Positions 1 to 8,989 are shown, numbered from the stretch's first letter. The stretch is 32,432 bases of DNA from Escherichia coli (GCF_003334255.1 NZ_QOWU01000058.1); one strand, 5' to 3'. Notes: generated by a model not told the origin, from the sequence alone. Numbers and translations are program-made.

Positions 1-180
1 TGCAGGGACTGTGGAAACGCGATTACTCATAATACAGTGTGTTGCCCGTATTGTGGTTCTGTCGACCCCTTCGGCTACTACCGGAATACAGACCGTATCG
101 TTACCATACTGCTGGCGCTGATTATTGTGGTCCTGCTGACTACTGTCAGCGTCAGTGTGTGTATACTGTGTAGCTGGTGA
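1..180 (+). CDS. 3' end of a small zinc-ribbon protein with a C-terminal hydrophobic helix (partial; start lies outside the window)
   Basis: Frame 1 reads through from position 1 to a TGA at 178-180: CRDCGNAITHNTVCCPYCGSVDPFGYYRNTDRIVTILLALIIVVLLTTVSVSVCILCSW. Two CxxC pairs followed by a hydrophobic stretch. Family not recognised. Confidence 0.4.
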   Translation, partial: CRDCGNAITHNTVCCPYCGSVDPFGYYRNTDRIVTILLALIIVVLLTTVSVSVCILCSW

Positions 181-1409
181 GATAACGGTTCATGTATCCC
201 CTGAGCTGACAGTGTACCGTGTATATTAAGCGTAACCGACAGGTTCTCCTTCATACCATATTAAATTTTCCAGGTATTGCCGCTGCCTTATTTCGTCCCA
301 TACAGGAAAACTCATCTGGGTTTCTGACAAATACGCGAAACTCACAGCCCCTCAATATCAACCACACGTTGTAAGCCGGTAATACCTGAAAATCAGCCCA
401 TTACTGCCCACGCCTCCGGCACCATTCCCTTTTGATTTCGAATTCTTTGTTGTCGCTATACCGCTTAATGTTCCCGGTCCTCCGGTGCAGATAACACCGG
501 AGTCATCGTAGCGCTGCTTCAATATTCAGGTGACATATTTCCAGACGGAAGCCGGCGCGCGATCGTAAAGTTTGTTAATTGTCAGTTCTGCCAGCCGGTT
601 GTCAACGGCAGAGTTAAAGGCTTCCAGCTCCGCAAGGGTAAGTTTATAACGCGTGTGGGAATTCACTTTTCCCGCGTCTCCTGACGTATTACGGGCTGCC
701 ACTTACCTGGTGTCCCGCAATACAGCCTTAGTGTTCCGTTATCGGGGATCCGGACGCACCGCAACAACCGGGGAAGTATTTCTGGTTTAGAGCAGTGTCA
801 AGAGGGATTTCTCAGCCCCTCACTCACCGGCTCAGTCTCAGGGCAGGAGCATTAATACGCTCAGTTCATGTCTTATACAGGAATGGGCACAGGGGGAGCT
901 GGCGTGTCACTGCTGATTTTACGCATCAGCGTTCATGTATCTGCACTCTGATACATGAACGATTCACAGCGCTCTGTTACCGGAGAGATTTACTCTCTTA
1001 GCTTACTCTGGCAAATCCTTTACGTTACTCTCTGATGACTTCTTATATTTATAATACCAATCAGACAGCCTTATCCCATCGGTGATATCAGTCTCCTCCT
1101 CGCCAGGAACGGGCTGACTCACTGTAACCACCTCCGAAAACAACTCTGCAATTATCAGAACGCCTGCTTCTCTCCCTGTCCTCACGAAAACTACCCCCTC
1201 TTTATCGCGCGTGCGTGCGGAAGCATCTTTTCGCAACAACCACCCGGTATACCGGTACGGCTCAGCCACCGCAACCTCCCCGTTTATCTCCTGGCGGTCA
1301 CATTCCCGATTATTTTTTACGTTTCTCCCCGGTTGTTATGCCGGTGAAGGTGGCGCGCTGTTTTCATGACCACACCGGCTGGTTTAACAACATCCGGAGG
1401 AACATTCTC

Positions 1410-1616
1410 ATGGCTACCCCAGTTTCACTGATGGATGACCAGATGGTCGACATGGCATTTATCACTCAACTGACCGGCCTGACAGATAAGTGGTTTTACA
1501 GGCTCATCAGGGATGGGGCCTTTCCGGCTCCCATCAAGCTGGGCCGCAGCTCCCGCTGGCTGAAAAGTGAAGTGGAAGCCTGGCTACAGGCGCGTATTGC
1601 ACAGCCCCGCCCGTAA
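1410..1616 (+). CDS. alpA: AlpA-family (phage/island) transcriptional regulator
   Basis: 68-aa product MATPVSLMDDQMVDMAFITQLTGLTDKWFYRLIRDGAFPAPIKLGRSSRWLKSEVEAWLQARIAQPRP with typical AlpA size and helix-turn-helix layout. GGAGG Shine-Dalgarno at 1396-1400 precedes the ATG at 1410. The longer 1215 start in the ORF track is probably a spurious upstream extension. Symbol denotes family homolog, not proven ortholog. Confidence 0.8.
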   Translation: MATPVSLMDDQMVDMAFITQLTGLTDKWFYRLIRDGAFPAPIKLGRSSRWLKSEVEAWLQARIAQPRP

Positions 1617-1710
1617 TTTCTGACCGTTATCCGTTCACCCGCAGCAGACGTAATCCCCGGCCTGCCGGCGGCATTCTGCTGCCTGTTATATCCCCGTGAG
1701 GAATATGAAA

Positions 1711-2313
1711 ATGAAACAACAGTATCAGACCCGCTACGAATGGCTCCACGAAAGCTACCAGAAATGGCTGACCGGCTTCACCCGGCACGCCGTATCCTGG
1801 GGCGTGTGTCATCCGAATATCTACTACTTCCATAATCTGACGCCCGGGTGGGTGTCATTCAATGGTGAAAAACCGGAGATTGCCATCGTACCCCAGAGCC
1901 TGCACCGGCTGATTTATGGCCCTGACAAACGGGCCACGCCGCCCCTGGATGATGATCTGATCGTGAATTTATGCACCAGTGAACATCTGCTGGTTCATCA
2001 TCCGATGCTGGAAGGCATTCTCCTGTCTGAATGTGAACGTCTGAGGCAGCGTTCTCTGGCAAATAAACTGATTAGCCTCTTCCGTCAGTTTGGTGGCACG
2101 GAGTTGCGCCTCAAACTGGTCTGGCTTTGCTGGCTTGATTTAATGACCGGAAACAGCCTTGAAGACTGGAAAGAGAACCTGAAACGGAAATCAGAAAAAG
2201 AGCTGGAGGAATGGATCATCAACCGTCAGAGGCAGAGCACAGCACTGACGGATCTGATGGATCAGTACGTGCTCCTGGCATACCGCACAACGGTTGACGA
2301 TAACCGCAACTGA
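1711..2313 (+). CDS. Conserved island protein of unknown function (possibly YfjJ/YagK-like; family assignment unverified)
   Basis: ~200-aa ORF directly downstream of the alpA-like gene, with GTGAGGA Shine-Dalgarno at 1696-1702 and ATG at 1705 or 1711. No diagnostic motif recognised by eye. Confidence 0.55.
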   Translation: MKQQYQTRYEWLHESYQKWLTGFTRHAVSWGVCHPNIYYFHNLTPGWVSFNGEKPEIAIVPQSLHRLIYGPDKRATPPLDDDLIVNLCTSEHLLVHHPMLEGILLSECERLRQRSLANKLISLFRQFGGTELRLKLVWLCWLDLMTGNSLEDWKENLKRKSEKELEEWIINRQRQSTALTDLMDQYVLLAYRTTVDDNRN

Positions 2314-3513
2314 TGCCGGTTGCTTCCGGAAGGTGTGACAAAATACGGAAATGATGATGCTCCCGGCCCCGCATGCTCACCTGCAGAGCGTGTTCGTCGT
2401 CATCATACTGAGCCATGACGGGCGTCTTAAGGGCATCCTGTCATTGCTGAGCAGGCAACACCACCAGAGGAGCCACGGACAGGGATGTTCTTTACAGCCC
2501 GATGCACGCCAGGTTCTCAGCAGACTGAATGTGCAGGTGCGGTTATTCACCAGAAATGGCATGCTGCGGTACATACCCATCCTGGTGACAATATGTACGT
2601 GGCGACAGCGATCCCGGCACTGTGGAAGAGACTCACTCAGCCTGCAGGATATTCTTTCCGGCATCCGGGAATGTCCGCCTGAATGCAAACAGGATGATAT
2701 TTGAATCCGTAATACTGTTCTTTCATCATAAATAATTTATGCAGATACAGTTAACCGTAACAGTAGCAGGTTTGTTTTCCCGGGAAATAATATCCGTCAG
2801 ACTGATGCCGGAACATATCTGAAACACGTTATGATGTTTTGTTATCAGAAATGTTGTATATTCTTATCCGTGGCGACAGTTTAATGCCCTCTGGTATCAC
2901 CTGATAATGCATATCCTGCGATGATTCGTTATATTTACGGGACACGCCTCTTTTCATTGTGCTCCTTTTCAGACTTCATTTTCCGTAAGTGTTCCCCGGC
3001 ATAAAGGAGGTACCTTTCTGGCGTTTATAACTCTCTTTATCGGTGACGCCGGTAATACAGGGAATACCACACCGACAAACGAGGTATTAACAGACGATAT
3101 TTCAGTGTCCATAATTTTTCTGTCCGGTTAAATAACGTCAGTCTGCTGCCCTCTGACTGTAATCATCAAAGCCGGAATGCATACCGGGTTACAACGTAAA
3201 AAAAGTGATGCTGGCCCCCGGTGCAGCTGGCGGGCGAAACATGTTTACCTTTCAATACCCCCTGTCTGCAGTCTCCACTCTTCCATCCTCTTAAGCTACG
3301 TCGGCCACATGAGTGCACTTCCATGATAACAGGTATTCCTGTCAGCATAACGAAGCCGGTTACCTTCCCTTCCTCCTGCATTTCCTGTCAGAATGACTGT
3401 ACAGCGCGCAGATTGCCTTTTTATTGACCACCTTAATATACCATTATAAACTTCTTTTTATCATGTTATTATCACCTTATTATGTTTAATTTTTAAGCAA
3501 CCGGAGAAAGAGG

Positions 3514-4431
3514 ATGGTTCAGAAAATTTTGTCGGATAAGGTTATGAATGAAAGAACAAATGCGTATTACTCTTATTATCTTGGAGAGCGTAATATCTCC
3601 GTACTACCCCTTAATGTTTATGATCCCCCGGAACGTTTTATCGCTTACATAAAAAAAAACAGAGAAAATCTGAACATCACACTTTCAGATTTTGAACTTG
3701 AACAAATAATTTCTGGTATGCGTCTGAAGGCCCTGGCCTTCCTGGTCCCCCTGGAAAAAATATCCTGGATCGCGGGCAGTGAACGCGCATGCTTATTTTC
3801 CTGGTATCTGTTGATGCAGTTTATCCAGAATAACAGGGCAAAAATAAGCGCAGACTTGCTTCAAAAGAATAAACTGTATCTTAAAGAAGAGTATCTGGAA
3901 GGGAATGCCTTCCCGTCGGACTCATCGACACAGTTCAGACAAATACTCAGAGTTCTCGATATTCTTTCTGATAAGAATTTGCGGGATGAGTGGATAATCC
4001 AGACCAAAGACAGATGGATGCGGGCATTTAAATCAAAGAGTCCTTTCAGTTACCTCCTCCCGGAGAACGAACATGAATGCATATGGACATGGAATTATTT
4101 GAAGGGAAAAAATATTGCACTGGAAAAACTGGCCAGTTTTCCTGGTTCTGCTGATATTTACCACGCAATTCACCTTTCATTTGACATATGGGTTACCTGT
4201 CCACTCACCTCACCTGACGATATAAAAAATTTCAGAAACAGTTTCAATAAGGCCAAGGCGCAGCGCAAGTACAAAAAAATGCAGGAAGATAAAGTCAATG
4301 TACAGTTTTTTCTTGACGCAGAAACCAGGGCGCAGCTCAAAGAATTATCGAGGGTCAGAAGACTCAGTACCGGCGAAATGCTGCATGACCTGATTGTTGA
4401 AGAGTATAAAAGGTACCGACATTCCAGATAA
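3514..4431 (+). CDS. Orphan hypothetical protein (305 aa) with a C-terminal ribbon-helix-helix-like segment
   Basis: Clean 918-nt ORF in a visibly AT-rich segment, with AGAGG Shine-Dalgarno just upstream of the ATG at 3514. The C-terminus VQFFLDAETRAQLKELSRVRRLSTGEMLHDLIVEEYKRY has the strand/helix/turn/helix pattern of RHH (CopG/Arc-like) DNA-binding domains. The N-terminal ~260 aa are unrecognised and contain no P-loop. Confidence 0.65.
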   Translation: MVQKILSDKVMNERTNAYYSYYLGERNISVLPLNVYDPPERFIAYIKKNRENLNITLSDFELEQIISGMRLKALAFLVPLEKISWIAGSERACLFSWYLLMQFIQNNRAKISADLLQKNKLYLKEEYLEGNAFPSDSSTQFRQILRVLDILSDKNLRDEWIIQTKDRWMRAFKSKSPFSYLLPENEHECIWTWNYLKGKNIALEKLASFPGSADIYHAIHLSFDIWVTCPLTSPDDIKNFRNSFNKAKAQRKYKKMQEDKVNVQFFLDAETRAQLKELSRVRRLSTGEMLHDLIVEEYKRYRHSR

Positions 4432-4457
4432 TTTCAGACATATATTATCTCCGTGAG

Positions 4458-4499
4458 TCCCCCACCACCTTTCCGGTGTGCGGGGGTTTTGTCTTTTTT
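4458..4499 (+). terminator. Candidate rho-independent terminator (GC-rich dyad followed by a T-tract)
   Basis: gtcccccaccacctttccggtgtgcggggg followed by ttttgtctttttt, immediately downstream of the 3514-4431 ORF. The stem is imperfect. Confidence 0.4.
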
Positions 4500-4515
4500 C
4501 ACCGGGAATACATGT

Positions 4516-5388
4516 ATGAATCCGTCTGATGCCATTGAGGCAATTGAAAAACCGCTCTCCTCCCTGCCTTACTCACTTTCCCGTCACATCCTGGAACATC
4601 TGCGCAAACTCACCAGTCACGAACCCGTGATTGGCATTATGGGTAAAAGCGGGGCCGGTAAATCCTCACTCTGTAATGCACTGTTTCAGGGGGAGGTCAC
4701 CCCGGTCAGTGATGTTCACGCCGGCACCCGGGAAGTGCGGCGCTTCCGTCTGAGTGGCCACGGTCACAGCATGATTATCACTGACCTGCCCGGGGTGGGC
4801 GAGAGCCGGGACAGGGATGCAGAGTATGAAGCCCTGTACCGTGACATTCTGCCTGAACTTGACCTGGTACTGTGGCTGATTAAAGCCGATGACCGTGCCC
4901 TGTCTGTGGATGAGTATTTCTGGCGACACATCCTGCACCGGGGACATCAGCAGGTGCTGTTTGTGGTGACGCAGGCCGACAAAACGGAGCCCTGCCATGA
5001 ATGGGATATGGCCGGCATTCAGCCTTCTCCCGCACAGGCACAGAACATTCGTGAGAAAACAGATGCGGTATTCCGGCTGTTCCGGCCCGTACATCCGGTT
5101 GTGGCCGTATCGGCCCGCACCGGCTGGGAACTGGATACGCTGGTCAGTGCGCTCATGACAGCGCTTCCCGACCATGCCGCCAGTCCCCTGATGACCCGCC
5201 TGCAGGACGAGCTGCGCACGGAATCTGTCCGCGCTCAGGCCCGTGAACAGTTTACCGGTGCGGTGGACCGGATATTTGACACGGCGGAGAGCGTCTGTGT
5301 TGCCTCTGTTGCCCGTACGGTTCTGCGTGCCGTCCGTGACACGGTGGTCTCTGTTGCCCGCGCTGTATGGAACTGGATTTTCTTCTGA
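4516..5388 (+). CDS. yeeP: YeeP/YfjP/YkfA-family putative GTP-binding protein (50S ribosome-binding GTPase-like)
   Basis: Walker A GKSGAGKSS, DLPGVG (G3) and TQADK (G4-like) motifs. Sits immediately upstream of the Ag43 gene as in CP4-44. Start chosen at the internal ATG 4516; the GTG at 4453 is an alternative. Symbol is by synteny and family; yfjP and ykfA are paralogs. Confidence 0.8.
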   Translation: MNPSDAIEAIEKPLSSLPYSLSRHILEHLRKLTSHEPVIGIMGKSGAGKSSLCNALFQGEVTPVSDVHAGTREVRRFRLSGHGHSMIITDLPGVGESRDRDAEYEALYRDILPELDLVLWLIKADDRALSVDEYFWRHILHRGHQQVLFVVTQADKTEPCHEWDMAGIQPSPAQAQNIREKTDAVFRLFRPVHPVVAVSARTGWELDTLVSALMTALPDHAASPLMTRLQDELRTESVRAQAREQFTGAVDRIFDTAESVCVASVARTVLRAVRDTVVSVARAVWNWIFF

Positions 5389-5499
5389 ACAGTCTGCCAG
5401 GGAAATGCCTGATAACATTACGTTAATCAACTGAAAACATGACACAAACCCCTCATACTCCTCCTGTTTCTCTTGCGTGACCGCCTTGTCATTAATAGA

Positions 5500-5545
5500 A
5501 TAAAACGATCGATAAAACAGGTATCAATCGTTGCTATCGATCGTT
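5500..5545. promoter_or_regulatory. Ag43 upstream regulatory segment with Dam GATC sites (candidate OxyR/Dam phase-variation switch)
   Basis: GATC at 5507-5510 and 5539-5542 within aacGATCgataaaacaggtatcaatcgttgctatcGATCgtttat, ~220-250 bp upstream of the Ag43 start. The OxyR/Dam switch of agn43 is established knowledge; that this exact segment is the operator is inference. Confidence 0.45.
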
Positions 5546-5759
5546 TATAGTGGTTAATGGTCTGCGAAAAGGCAGCTGAATCTCTTCATCATGCAGAACG
5601 GAATTGCACACAACGGACTGATACTTCTCTGGCGGATGAGAGAGGGGAAGCATTTATGTCCGGGAAAAACCACTTTATCTGACCATGCTGTTTTGTACCT
5701 GCCGGTATCCACTTTTGTGGGTACCGGCTTTTTTATTCACCCTCTGTAAGGAAAAGCTG

Positions 5760-8606
5760 ATGAAACGACATCTGAACACCAGCTACAGGCTGGTATGGAA
5801 TCACATTACGGGCACCCTGGTGGTGGCTTCCGAACTGGCCCGCTCACGGGGAAAACGCGCCGGTGTGGCGGTTGTGCTGTCTCTTGCTGCTGTCACATCA
5901 GTCCCGGCACTGGCTGCTGACACGGTTGTACAGGCGGGAGAAACCGTGAACGGCGGAACACTGACAAATCATGACAACCAGATTGTTCTCGGTACGGCCA
6001 ACGGAATGACCATCAGTAGCGGTCTGGAGTATGGGCCGGATAACGAGGCCAATACCGGCGGGCAATGGATACAAAATGGCGGTATCGCCAACAACACTAC
6101 TGTCACCGGTGGTGGTCTTCAGAGAGTGAATGCCGGAGGAAGCGTTTCAGACACGGTTATCAGTGCCGGAGGCGGACAGAGCCTTCAGGGGCAGGCAGTG
6201 AATACCACTCTGAACGGCGGTGAGCAGTGGGTACATGAAGGCGGGATTGCAACAGGTACCGTCATTAATGAGAAGGGCTGGCAGGCCGTCAAATCCGGCG
6301 CAATGGCAACCGACACGGTTGTGAATACCGGCGCGGAAGGGGGACCGGATGCAGAAAATGGTGATACCGGGCAGTTTGTTCGCGGAAATGCCGTACGTAC
6401 CACCATCAATAAAAATGGTCGTCAGATTGTGGCTGTTGAAGGAACAGCAAATACCACTGTGGTTTATGCCGGCGGCGACCAGACGGTACACGGGCATGCG
6501 CTGGATACCACGTTGAATGGGGGGTACCAGTATGTGCACAACGGAGGCACAGCCTCTGACACGGTTGTAAACAGTGACGGCTGGCAGATTGTCAAGGAAG
6601 GTGGTCTGGCGGATTTCACCACCGTTAACCAGAAAGGCAAACTGCAGGTGAACGCCGGTGGTACAGCCACGAATGTCACCCTGAAGCAGGGCGGCGCACT
6701 GGTCACCAGTACGGCGGCAACCGTCACCGGCAGCAACCGTCTGGGCAATTTCACGGTGGAAAACGGTAATGCTGACGGTGTTGTTCTGGAGTCCGGCGGT
6801 CGCCTGGATGTACTGGAAGGCCATTCAGCGCAGAAAACACGGGTGGATGACGGCGGAACCCTGGCAGTGTCTGCCGGTGGTAAGGCAACAGATGTCACCA
6901 TGACATCCGGTAGTGCCCTGATTGCAGACAGTGGTGCCACTGTTGAGGGGACCAATGCCAGCGGTAAGTTCAGTATTGATGGCATATCCGGTCAGGCCAG
7001 CGGCCTGCTGCTGGAAAATGGCGGCAGCTTTACGGTTAATGCCGGGGGACAGGCCAGCAACACCACTGTCGGACATCGTGGAACACTGATGCTGGCTGCC
7101 GGGGGAAGTCTGAGTGGCAGAACACAGCTCAGTAAAGGCGCCAGCATGGTACTGAATGGTGATGTGGTCAGTACCGGCGATATTGTTAACGCAGGGGAGA
7201 TTTACTTTGACAATCAGACAACACCGGATGCCGTACTGAGCCGTGCTGTTGCAAAAGGCAACGCCCCGGTAACGTTCCATAAACTGACAACCAGTAACCT
7301 CACCGGTCAGGGTGGCACCATCAATATGCGTGTTCGCCTTGATGGCAGCAATGCCTCTGACCAGCTGGTGATTAATGGTGGTCAGGCAACCGGCAAAACC
7401 TGGCTTGCGTTTACAAATGTCGGAAACAGCAACCTCGGGGTGGCAACCACCGGACAGGGTATCCGGGTTGTGGATGCACAGAATGGCGCCACCACAGAAG
7501 AAGGTGCGTTTGCCCTGAGTCGCCCGCTTCAGGCCGGCGCCTTTAACTACACCCTGAACCGTGACAGCGATGAAGACTGGTACCTGCGCAGTGAAAATGC
7601 TTATCGTGCTGAAGTCCCCCTGTATGCCTCCATGCTGACACAGGCAATGGACTATGACCGGATTCTGGCAGGCTCCCGCAGCCATCAGACCGGTGTAAAC
7701 GGTGAAAATAACAGCGTCCGTCTCAGCATTCAGGGCGGTCATCTCGGTCACGATAACAACGGCGGTATTGCCCGTGGAGCCACGCCGGAAAGCAGCGGCA
7801 GCTATGGCTTCGTCCGTCTGGAGGGTGACCTGCTCAGAACAGAGGTTGCCGGTATGTCTGTGACCGCGGGGGTATATGGTGCTGCTGGCCATTCTTCCGT
7901 TGATGTTAAGGATGATGACGGTTCCCGCGCCGGCACGGTCCGGGATGATGCCGGCAGCCTGGGCGGATACCTGAATCTGACACACACGTCCTCCGGCCTG
8001 TGGGCTGACATTGTGGCCCAGGGAACCCGCCACAGCATGAAAGCGTCATCGGACAATAACGACTTCCGCGCCCGGGGCTGGGGCTGGCTGGGCTCACTGG
8101 AAACCGGTCTGCCCTTCAGTATCACTGACAACCTGATGCTGGAGCCACAACTGCAGTATACCTGGCAGGGACTTTCCCTGGATGACGGCCAGGATAACGC
8201 CGGTTATGTGAAGTTCGGGCATGGCAGTGCACAACATGTGCGTGCCGGTTTCCGTCTGGGCAGCCACAACGATATGACCTTTGGCGAAGGCACCTCATCC
8301 CGTGACACTCTGCGCGACAGTACAAAACACCGTGTGAGTGAACTGCCGGTGAACTGGTGGGTACAGCCTTCTGTTATCCGCACTTTCAGCTCCCGGGGTG
8401 ACATGAGCATGGGTACAGCCGCCGCCGGCAGTAACATGACGTTCTCACCGTCCCGGAATGGCACGTCACTGGACCTGCAGGCCGGACTGGAAGCCCGTGT
8501 CCGGGAAAATATCACCCTGGGCGTTCAGGCCGGTTATGCCCACAGCGTCAGCGGCAGCAGCGCTGAAGGTTATAACGGTCAGGCCACGCTGAATGTGACT
8601 TTTTGA
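5760..8606 (+). CDS. flu: Antigen 43 (Ag43) self-associating autotransporter adhesin
   Basis: 948-aa product. Extended signal peptide [52 protein letters not shown], repetitive beta-helical passenger (GG/NGG/TxVxxGG repeats) and a C-terminal beta-barrel ending in TLNVTF. AAGGAAAAG Shine-Dalgarno precedes the ATG at 5760. The antisense ORFs in the track across this gene are artifacts. Confidence 0.9.
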
Positions 8607-8628
8607 TAATCAGGTCACTCTCCTTCAG

Positions 8629-8657
8629 GCCCCGGTCATCATGACCGGGGCTTTTTA
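8629..8657 (+). terminator. Rho-independent terminator downstream of the Ag43 gene
   Basis: Perfect 9-bp dyad ccccggtca / tgaccgggg (8630-8638 and 8642-8650) followed by cttttt. Confidence 0.6.
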
Positions 8658-8676
8658 CTTTCAGGGAGCAACAGAT

Positions 8677-8835
8677 ATGCCGGGTTGTACATCACGTTTA
8701 TTGCCCGAAGGCCCTTTCTCACGCGAACAGGCTGTTGCCGTCAAAACAGCTTACCGCAATGTGTTTACTGAAGATGACCAGGGAACATATTCCCGGCTGG
8801 TTATCCGTAATGCTGAAGGTCAGTTGCGCTGGTGA
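8677..8835 (+). CDS. Small hypothetical protein (52 aa) conserved in CP4-type islands; family uncertain
   Basis: AGGGAG Shine-Dalgarno at 8663-8668 precedes the ATG at 8677. Product [52 protein letters not shown]. The 8641 start in the ORF track overlaps the terminator hairpin. Confidence 0.4.
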
Positions 8836-8989
8836 TGCCGGAACACAGCTTAATACTCAGCTCGCCAGTTAAGGGCTTCTCAGACAATAAACGTCATTCA
8901 TTTCATCTGTCAGGCCGCGTCTTCTCCGGGAGACGTGGCTTTTTCATTTATTACACCAGTAAATCGTAACCACCGATAAGGAGCAAATT

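Follow-up and report, generated by a model that had tools for sequence, protein, structure and literature searches.

The first 180 nucleotides of the stretch of Escherichia coli DNA analysed here (the window, 32,432 nt) are the 3' nine-tenths of a genuine protein-coding gene of 66 codons. This small gene is an internal, fixed component of a module that also holds Gp2-, hha- and alpA-like genes, in CP4-type islands of Escherichia and close relatives. Its product is predicted to be a microprotein made of a zinc ribbon followed by a single membrane helix.

The small gene starts 21 nucleotides outside the window

Frame 1 of window 1-180 is stop-free on the plus strand until its end and translates as CRDCGNAITHNTVCCPYCGSVDPFGYYRNTDRIVTILLALIIVVLLTTVSVSVCILCSW*. 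Several complete genomes, among them E. coli S88, ATCC 11775 and MS7163, are 100% identical to window 1-1400. In S88 the gene is annotated over 201 nt (NC_011742.1 4842491-4842691), with a product, WP_001297219.1, that RefSeq calls a "hypothetical protein" and that is identical to our translation over all 59 residues encoded in the window. The S88 start is an ATG located 21 nt before the window and preceded by GAGGAGGGAG, with a GGAGG ribosome-binding site at a spacing of 5 nt, that is ~30 nt before the window start. The part of the gene that lies off the window thus amounts to 7 codons (21 nt), and the full-length protein is MVIRKKKCRDCGNAITHNTVCCPYCGSVDPFGYYRNTDRIVTILLALIIVVLLTTVSVSVCILCSW.

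The initial annotation had described a partial gene cut by the window edge, to be followed upstream. The gene does lack 7 codons in the window and its frame is maintained in S88, but only over those codons, up to a proper start. Since the ORF needs nothing more, it is no fragment of a larger protein, and we rejected that candidate, the gene being complete at 66 aa in genomes identical to the window. The features of the small gene and of its downstream neighbours are listed in Table 1.

Table 1. Positions of the small gene, of its parts and of two downstream genes in the window.
Feature	Position (nt)	Strand	Evidence
Codons 8-66 and stop of the 66-aa CDS	1..180	+	Translation; S88 annotation and start; dN/dS and codon periodicity
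Putative four-Cys zinc-ribbon knuckles, C8xxC11 and (C21)C22xxC25, with H17-N-T-V between	1..54	+	Invariant alignment columns
Juxtamembrane motif DPFGYYRNTDR, residues 29-39	64..96	+	Conserved columns; DPFG...R.DR in plasmid homologues
Predicted single C-terminal transmembrane helix, residues ~40-62	97..165	+	Kyte-Doolittle; AlphaFold2; subtype alignments
C-terminal tail CILCSW, with two Cys	160..177	+	Subtype alignment; alleles
Hha/YmoA-family gene remnant, convergent, constant downstream neighbour	526..702	-	ORF list
AlpA-family helix-turn-helix gene	1410..1616	+	ORF list; Pfam Phage_AlpA on the equivalent gene

Purifying selection acts on the N-terminal half of the protein

By extracting and aligning the DNA of seven copies of the small gene from different islands, we found that substitutions follow the codon structure. 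In the zinc-ribbon half (codons 1-39 of the alignment), codon positions 1 and 2 were 77-100% identical vs 49-87% at position 3, with Fisher p values down to 8e-7. Over the same half, codon 1 being excluded, Nei-Gojobori dN/dS ranged from 0.06 to 0.26, diverged copies differing mainly at third positions. The conserved cysteines and the codon periodicity of the substitutions show that the pattern seen in the translation is not due to chance. Moreover, the 198-nt intergenic DNA upstream of the gene is 81-98% identical among subtypes and third codon positions diverge more than it does, which argues that conservation acts on the protein and is not carried by regulatory DNA. The half encoding the helix and tail had dN/dS values of 0.4-2.8, and nucleotide identity between subtypes fell to 42-66% in the hydrophobic-tail region; nonetheless, the frame, the length (64-66 aa) and the hydrophobicity were kept.

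An Rfam search of the locus returned no RNA, and an antisense ORF (window 78-254, minus strand) was rejected because it is unconserved across subtypes. Scanning the locus for promoters and terminators gave no plus-strand promoter at the stringency of the tool and no terminator. One sigma-70-like antisense site (10 of 12) lies inside the gene, and the overall number of promoter-like sites, 2 for 1.3 expected, is within chance.

A predicted zinc ribbon joined to a predicted C-terminal membrane helix

The two CxxC pairs and the hydrophobic helix noticed by the initial annotation were borne out by the translation and by hydropathy. The first CxxC is encoded by nt 1-12 and the second, within CCPYC, by nt 40-54, while the best 19-residue Kyte-Doolittle mean, 2.99, covers residues 40-58 (window nt 97-153), with means of 2.9-3.0 across all subtypes. 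In an alignment of 11 diverged intact homologues, C8, C21, C22, C25 and H17-N-T-V were invariant and C11 nearly so, and in the juxtamembrane motif G32, Y33, Y34, R35, T37, D38 and R39 were invariant as well; residues 1-39 are nearly invariant among intact homologues. From this pattern we infer that the N-terminal ribbon would bind zinc through four cysteines. Within the helix, L44, L47, L52, S59 and L63 were invariant in the same alignment, and V58 and V60 nearly so.

In an AlphaFold2 model made with the family alignment, residues 31-65 are predicted to form a single long helix, and the block means of pLDDT are 92 and 91 for residues 41-60. The zinc-ribbon half was modelled with low confidence (block-mean pLDDT 55-64); in it, residues 6-7 and 14-15 form short strands, and 21 and 28 are single bridge residues. 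At most 4 residues follow the predicted helix, hence the protein is predicted to be C-tail-anchored. Its N-terminal domain of 39 residues carries a net charge of +4 (+3 to +6 in the other subtypes) and, according to the positive-inside rule, is predicted to be cytoplasmic; the cytoplasm is the compartment where a zinc site liganded by cysteines is stable. Thus, the product is probably a C-tail-anchored inner-membrane microprotein with its N-terminus in the cytoplasm.

The cysteine-rich end reported after the helix is present, in that two cysteines (codons at nt 160-162 and 169-171) lie in the last six residues, but it is no conserved feature of the family. These cysteines are specific to one subtype and vary within it, as in an abundant C61Y allele, and none is found in the other two subtypes, which end in YVLW or FVLLQ/P.

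The small gene is embedded in an island module

The neighbours of the small gene did not change among the eight contexts inspected, which include other E. coli chromosomal sites and a Salmonella contig. In all eight, genes for Zn_ribbon_11 proteins and a Gp2/YagK-YfjJ gene point away from the small gene on its upstream side, and the small gene is followed by a convergent hha-like gene and then, in its own orientation, by an alpA-like gene, after which the module continues with a GTPase gene and Ag43. No integrase or tRNA was found in the 3-9 kb shown upstream of the small gene in any of the eight contexts. Given that this internal position is shared by all of them, the small gene does not lie at the edge of an island.

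In S88, the upstream gene is a divergently oriented member of the inovirus-Gp2 family, equivalents elsewhere carrying Pfam YagK_YfjJ_C. It is followed by two genes whose zinc-ribbon products have 133 aa and 144 aa and whose equivalents carry DUF7828 + Zn_ribbon_11, and farther upstream by an IS66 element, IS fragments, the fecIRABCDE operon and more IS elements. The hha remnant is a pseudogene in the S88 annotation; an intact hha occupies this place in other islands. The initial annotation rightly saw no integrase in the window, which holds no tRNA either. However, it had placed the gene immediately beyond the island on its alpA side, where one would look for an integrase and a tRNA, and this does not hold: island genes continue in S88 for 21.7 kb upstream of the small gene, as far as the tRNA-Leu gene leuX, with no integrase annotated between.

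Several other observations were made on the module and its surroundings. In the 198-nt intergenic region upstream of the window (L001 11782-11979), a perfect 8-bp inverted repeat, TCCGTATG-GTT-CATACGGA, adjoins the ribosome-binding site of the Gp2 gene, and an AT-rich block, TTTTTTTAATGTAAAAAAC, which ends ~32 nt before the start of the small gene, could hold a -10 element. Conservation among subtypes stops within the small gene, at the junction of zinc ribbon and transmembrane helix, and the DNA 3' of its stop is unalignable among subtypes (window ~118-260 for the two together), though the hha-like gene is always next. A recombination or module boundary may thus lie inside the small gene. PADLOC gave no match for the three upstream module genes or for the two hypothetical proteins encoded downstream of alpA; the island GTPase (YfjP/YeeP family, window 4516-5388, plus strand) matched LeoBC (2.9e-8) and LeoA (3.5e-4) weakly, both of which are dynamin-like proteins.

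Window 1-11516 is 99.89% identical to S88, where an IS21-family element, ISEc12, is inserted just past window ~11516. For the other genomes that match best, the match is split and exceeds the query by ~2.6 kb or more, with ISEc12 listed under it. As the window is without this insertion, the source strain is a close relative lacking ISEc12 at that place. A 305-aa ORF (window 3514-4431, plus strand) that includes nine consecutive A at nt ~3652-3660 is intact in the window, and an intact copy of 305 aa is also found on a Salmonella contig (L010); the S88 counterpart has eight A and is frameshifted in the RefSeq annotation. In K-12 (L017 24473-26325), IS1F abuts yjhU where S88 and window 1-17000 hold a CP4-like segment. 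This segment comprises first the small gene, alpA and the genes for the GTPase, Ag43, DUF932 and antirestriction proteins, and then those for JAB/RadC and DUF987 proteins, a YeeU/CbtA remnant and mtnK/mtnA. Either an IS-associated deletion in K-12 or an insertion in the B2-type leuX island could account for this arrangement.

Three subtypes with abundant intact alleles

A word-indexed search of 5.8 billion proteins retrieved 78 relatives. Those with a named source came from E. coli, Shigella, Salmonella and Klebsiella, to which cluster look-ups added E. albertii. Intact members are 64-66 aa long and split by their hydrophobic tail into three subtypes, ending in ...IVTILLALIIVVLLTTVSVSVCILCSW, ...IFTALLALLVVVLLVTSAVSMYVLW and ...LLCLLTLLLVLILVTVSGVSVFVLLQ/P. 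Each intact allele that we looked up was present on about 370 to over 1000 contigs, the exact allele of the window and its C61Y variant being each on 1000 or more, and frameshifted forms were much rarer. An exhaustive HMM search of 1.84 billion representatives gave 25 matches with E < 1e-10, and those that we read belong to the same family; weaker matches were scattered small zinc-ribbon/transmembrane proteins. At this threshold, therefore, the family is narrow and enterobacterial.

The gene was found in 3493 of 5426 complete E. coli genomes, with two places per genome as the median and six as the maximum. It is rare on plasmids and absent from the CP4-6, CP4-44, CP4-57 and leuX/KpLE2 regions of K-12. 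It is likewise absent from 50,697 phage records, where the sole match covers 20 residues at the end of a 4.5-kb record. In a divergent lineage (L009 9016-9213 and L007 8021-8224), either the fourth zinc ligand is lost (CCPGYVS, JA0072) or the helix is disrupted (M15); the reading frame is still open in both, and such copies may be under relaxed selection. The alleles that have lost C25 or are frameshifted indicate that the small gene is dispensable in some backgrounds. A literature search on the WP_001297219.1 protein found nothing, and the protein appears to be unstudied.

Relatives in plasmid transfer regions

By tblastn against plasmids, we obtained a weak match on ~95 conjugative plasmids, with 41% identity over residues 1-39. 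On the plasmid that we inspected, it corresponds to an unannotated 73-aa ORF (NZ_CP122707.1 38630-38851, minus strand, equivalent to L013 2998-3219, plus strand), MMSSQLQNCVDCGKALSRTATTCGNCSSTDPFGKKRRSDRFYQWFAGLFITAIIIAGGLWYMGLLDVPGLLLR, which is antisense to a tra operon of F type and is flanked by traN and by a hypothetical gene beside trbC. A contig that carries I-type (Dot/Icm-like) transfer genes holds a further member, again on the strand opposite to them (L014 6001-6237). Comparing by hhalign the small family of the islands with that of the plasmids (72-78 aa, from F-type and I-type transfer regions) gave a probability of 98.4%.

The plasmid ORF aligns without gaps over CxxC-x10-CxxC (CxDCG-x9-CxxC) and S-x-DPFG-x3-R-x-DR and has likewise one transmembrane helix. 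It differs from the island protein by a few more residues past the helix and by the absence of the H17-N-T-V element and of C21. Its neighbour differs as well: the plasmid ORF overlaps a convergent gene for a hypothetical protein of 126-148 aa, whereas the island gene is flanked by Gp2 and hha. This 126-148 aa protein is 57% identical between the F-type and I-type contexts. It had no match in Pfam, NCBIfam or PADLOC, all its relatives are hypothetical, and no homologue of it was found in the window or in the island loci searched. The plasmid ORF product likewise had no match in the profile libraries tried. With these relatives, the family reaches conjugative elements.

A possible adaptor at the membrane and alternative explanations

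The likeliest reading, to which we give about an even chance, is that the small protein serves mobile elements as a zinc-ribbon adaptor that is anchored by its tail and faces the cytoplasm. Its basic N-terminus of 39 residues would stand in the cytoplasm, folded as a four-Cys zinc ribbon that continues through DPFGYYRNTDR directly into the single membrane helix. The protein being short with a terminal helix, its insertion would be post-translational, as for the proteins studied in PMC3426401 and PMC7549839. The strong constraint on the ribbon and the juxtamembrane motif, together with the loose constraint on the helix, suggests, at low confidence, that the helix would be mainly an anchor and that the ribbon would bind a partner. 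More tentatively, the ribbon may hold a cytoplasmic partner, either protein or nucleic acid, at the membrane; equally tentatively, this partner may come from mobile-element biology, for instance from the processing, transfer or establishment of element DNA. A weak and circumstantial hint at a role in the DNA transactions or the establishment of the element comes from the divergent orientation with a Rep-like gene of the Gp2 family and from the only distant homologues detected, which lie in the transfer regions of plasmids. On the other hand, the invariant or near-invariant helix positions (L44, L47, L52, S59 and L63; V58 and V60) leave room for a helix that may do more than anchor.

Two alternatives give the hydrophobic part the leading role. 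A small membrane-damaging toxin of an addiction, abortive-infection or lysis-like kind, with a tail that perturbs the inner membrane, would serve the stability of the island or the killing of infected cells. Type I toxins carried by prophages form a known class (PMC12648545), and the small size, basic N-terminus, hydrophobic C-terminus and mobile-element location of our protein would suit such a function. The recurring frameshift and Cys-loss alleles fit a costly gene, and the antisense sigma-70-like site inside the gene (10 of 12) and the convergent gene overlapping the plasmid homologue would also speak for a toxin. However, conservation is lowest in the helix, the presumed toxic part, and strong purifying selection acts on the zinc ribbon. 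Besides, no Rfam RNA, conserved antisense ORF or PADLOC match was found at the locus, the promoter-like sites are within chance (2 vs 1.3 expected) and intact alleles dominate, so that we consider a toxin unlikely. Alternatively, the protein might regulate a larger membrane protein by helix-helix contact, like MgrB, AcrZ and MgtS. A 2025 review (PMC12648545) gives this as the way in which bacterial small membrane proteins are most often known to act, and the C-terminal half of the helix has a conserved small/polar face with an invariant S59 and nearly invariant V58 and V60. Yet most helix positions vary among the three subtypes and it is the cytoplasmic domain that is most constrained. Moreover, the same review describes none of these proteins as zinc-binding, the word "zinc" occurring 0 times in it, and a regulator of this kind seems to us distinctly unlikely.

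The other two alternatives concern the gene itself. It could be a decaying or non-functional ORF of which the 5' conservation reflects an overlap with regulatory DNA of the divergent Gp2-family gene. The 81-98% identity of the 198-nt upstream intergenic DNA, the end of conservation inside the gene and the unalignable DNA after its stop would agree with this, as would the existence of pseudogenised copies and the degraded state of the island segment itself, with its hha pseudogene, its IS elements and no integrase. But three-base periodicity, with third positions the most diverged, is unexpected of regulatory DNA. The dN/dS of 0.06-0.26 and the persistence of frame, length of 64-66 aa and hydrophobicity despite 42-66% nucleotide identity between subtypes also argue against decay, which we regard as very improbable. 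Finally, the ORF runs off the edge of a window without integrase or tRNA, as would a larger gene of which the window shows only the C-terminal fragment, located where the island ends at its tRNA and integrase. Against the start codon found 21 nt upstream, a tRNA-Leu that is 21.7 kb off with island genes between and an internal position that recurs in 8 of 8 islands, such a fragment is hardly credible.

Returning to the membrane adaptor, a wider version of it would unite the island gene and its plasmid relatives in an unrecognised family of zinc-ribbon, tail-anchored microproteins of mobile elements with a membrane role in DNA transfer or establishment. The members of such a family might, for example, act as a tether for incoming DNA or for a Gp2 protein of Rep or relaxase type, or they might modulate exclusion or defence, but we regard this wider version as unlikely. 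In any case, about two thirds of the complete E. coli genomes encode a selected microprotein, frequently with several copies each. Its small gene marks a conserved and unexplained module of Gp2-like, small protein, Hha and AlpA genes in widespread CP4-type islands. The gene is common, ordinary and already annotated as hypothetical; what is mildly unusual is that a zinc ribbon and a tail anchor are paired in one protein. With a partner identified, the known small membrane proteins would gain a zinc-binding, tail-anchored type.

Comparison with known families and systems

The initial annotation had not recognised a family, and our searches concur. The best Pfam models, all below threshold, were zf-ChsH2 (i-E 0.014), UPF0547 (0.022) and DZR (0.074). 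In NCBIfam, the best hit was a rubrerythrin-like model (NF033497) at 0.0046, with 16.6 bits for a cut-off of 32. Among PADLOC models, the 66-aa protein matched no defence system, with only a zinc-finger stretch of Cas12f at E = 0.25, and a PDB sequence search with it gave nothing below E = 0.1. No named family, then, matches the protein. WP_001297219.1 itself has the same sequence and the same neighbourhood, and the paralogous subtypes are called hypothetical or "zinc-ribbon domain-containing".

The two CxxC knuckles are conserved in intact homologues, as is characteristic of zinc ribbons, although no family profile reached its threshold. Generic zinc-ribbon models (zf-ChsH2 PF12172, UPF0547 PF10571, DZR PF12773, Zn_ribbon_3 PF13248 and NF033497) likewise have two CxxC knuckles ~10 residues apart, but they lack the membrane helix and the juxtamembrane motif. 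Three PHROG families of phage proteins with no assigned function (38187, 10292 and 14275) matched residues 6-59 weakly (E = 2e-5 to 1e-3), and in them too an N-terminal zinc ribbon is followed by a hydrophobic segment. Their profiles are longer, however, with 136-178 positions and an extra C-terminal domain spanning 90-130 further positions.

ZAS anti-sigma factors carry an H-x3-C-x2-C motif in a domain of ~80-90 aa and are encoded beside an ECF sigma gene. Our protein resembles them by its membrane-anchored, cytoplasm-facing and predicted zinc-binding N-terminus and by the local string H17-NTV-C21-C22-PY-C25. It differs from them in that its domain has 39 aa, vs ~80-90 aa, in a small protein that lacks an extracytoplasmic domain. 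We rejected this assignment, as the spacing of H17-x3-C21 and C22-x2-C25 is unfit in either register, there is no zf-HC2 match and the module holds no sigma gene.

Regarding topology, the nearest known systems are E. coli C-tail-anchored and very short membrane proteins, whose insertion is post-translational (PMC3426401, PMC7549839). TssL is an example of a bacterial C-tail-anchored inner-membrane protein (PMC3426401) and YohP a small membrane protein inserted post-translationally (PMC7549839). Neither has sequence similarity to the 66-aa protein or a zinc ribbon, but the predicted topology class is shared, with a cytoplasmic N-terminal domain and a single helix at the extreme C-terminus of a protein, too short for co-translational targeting.
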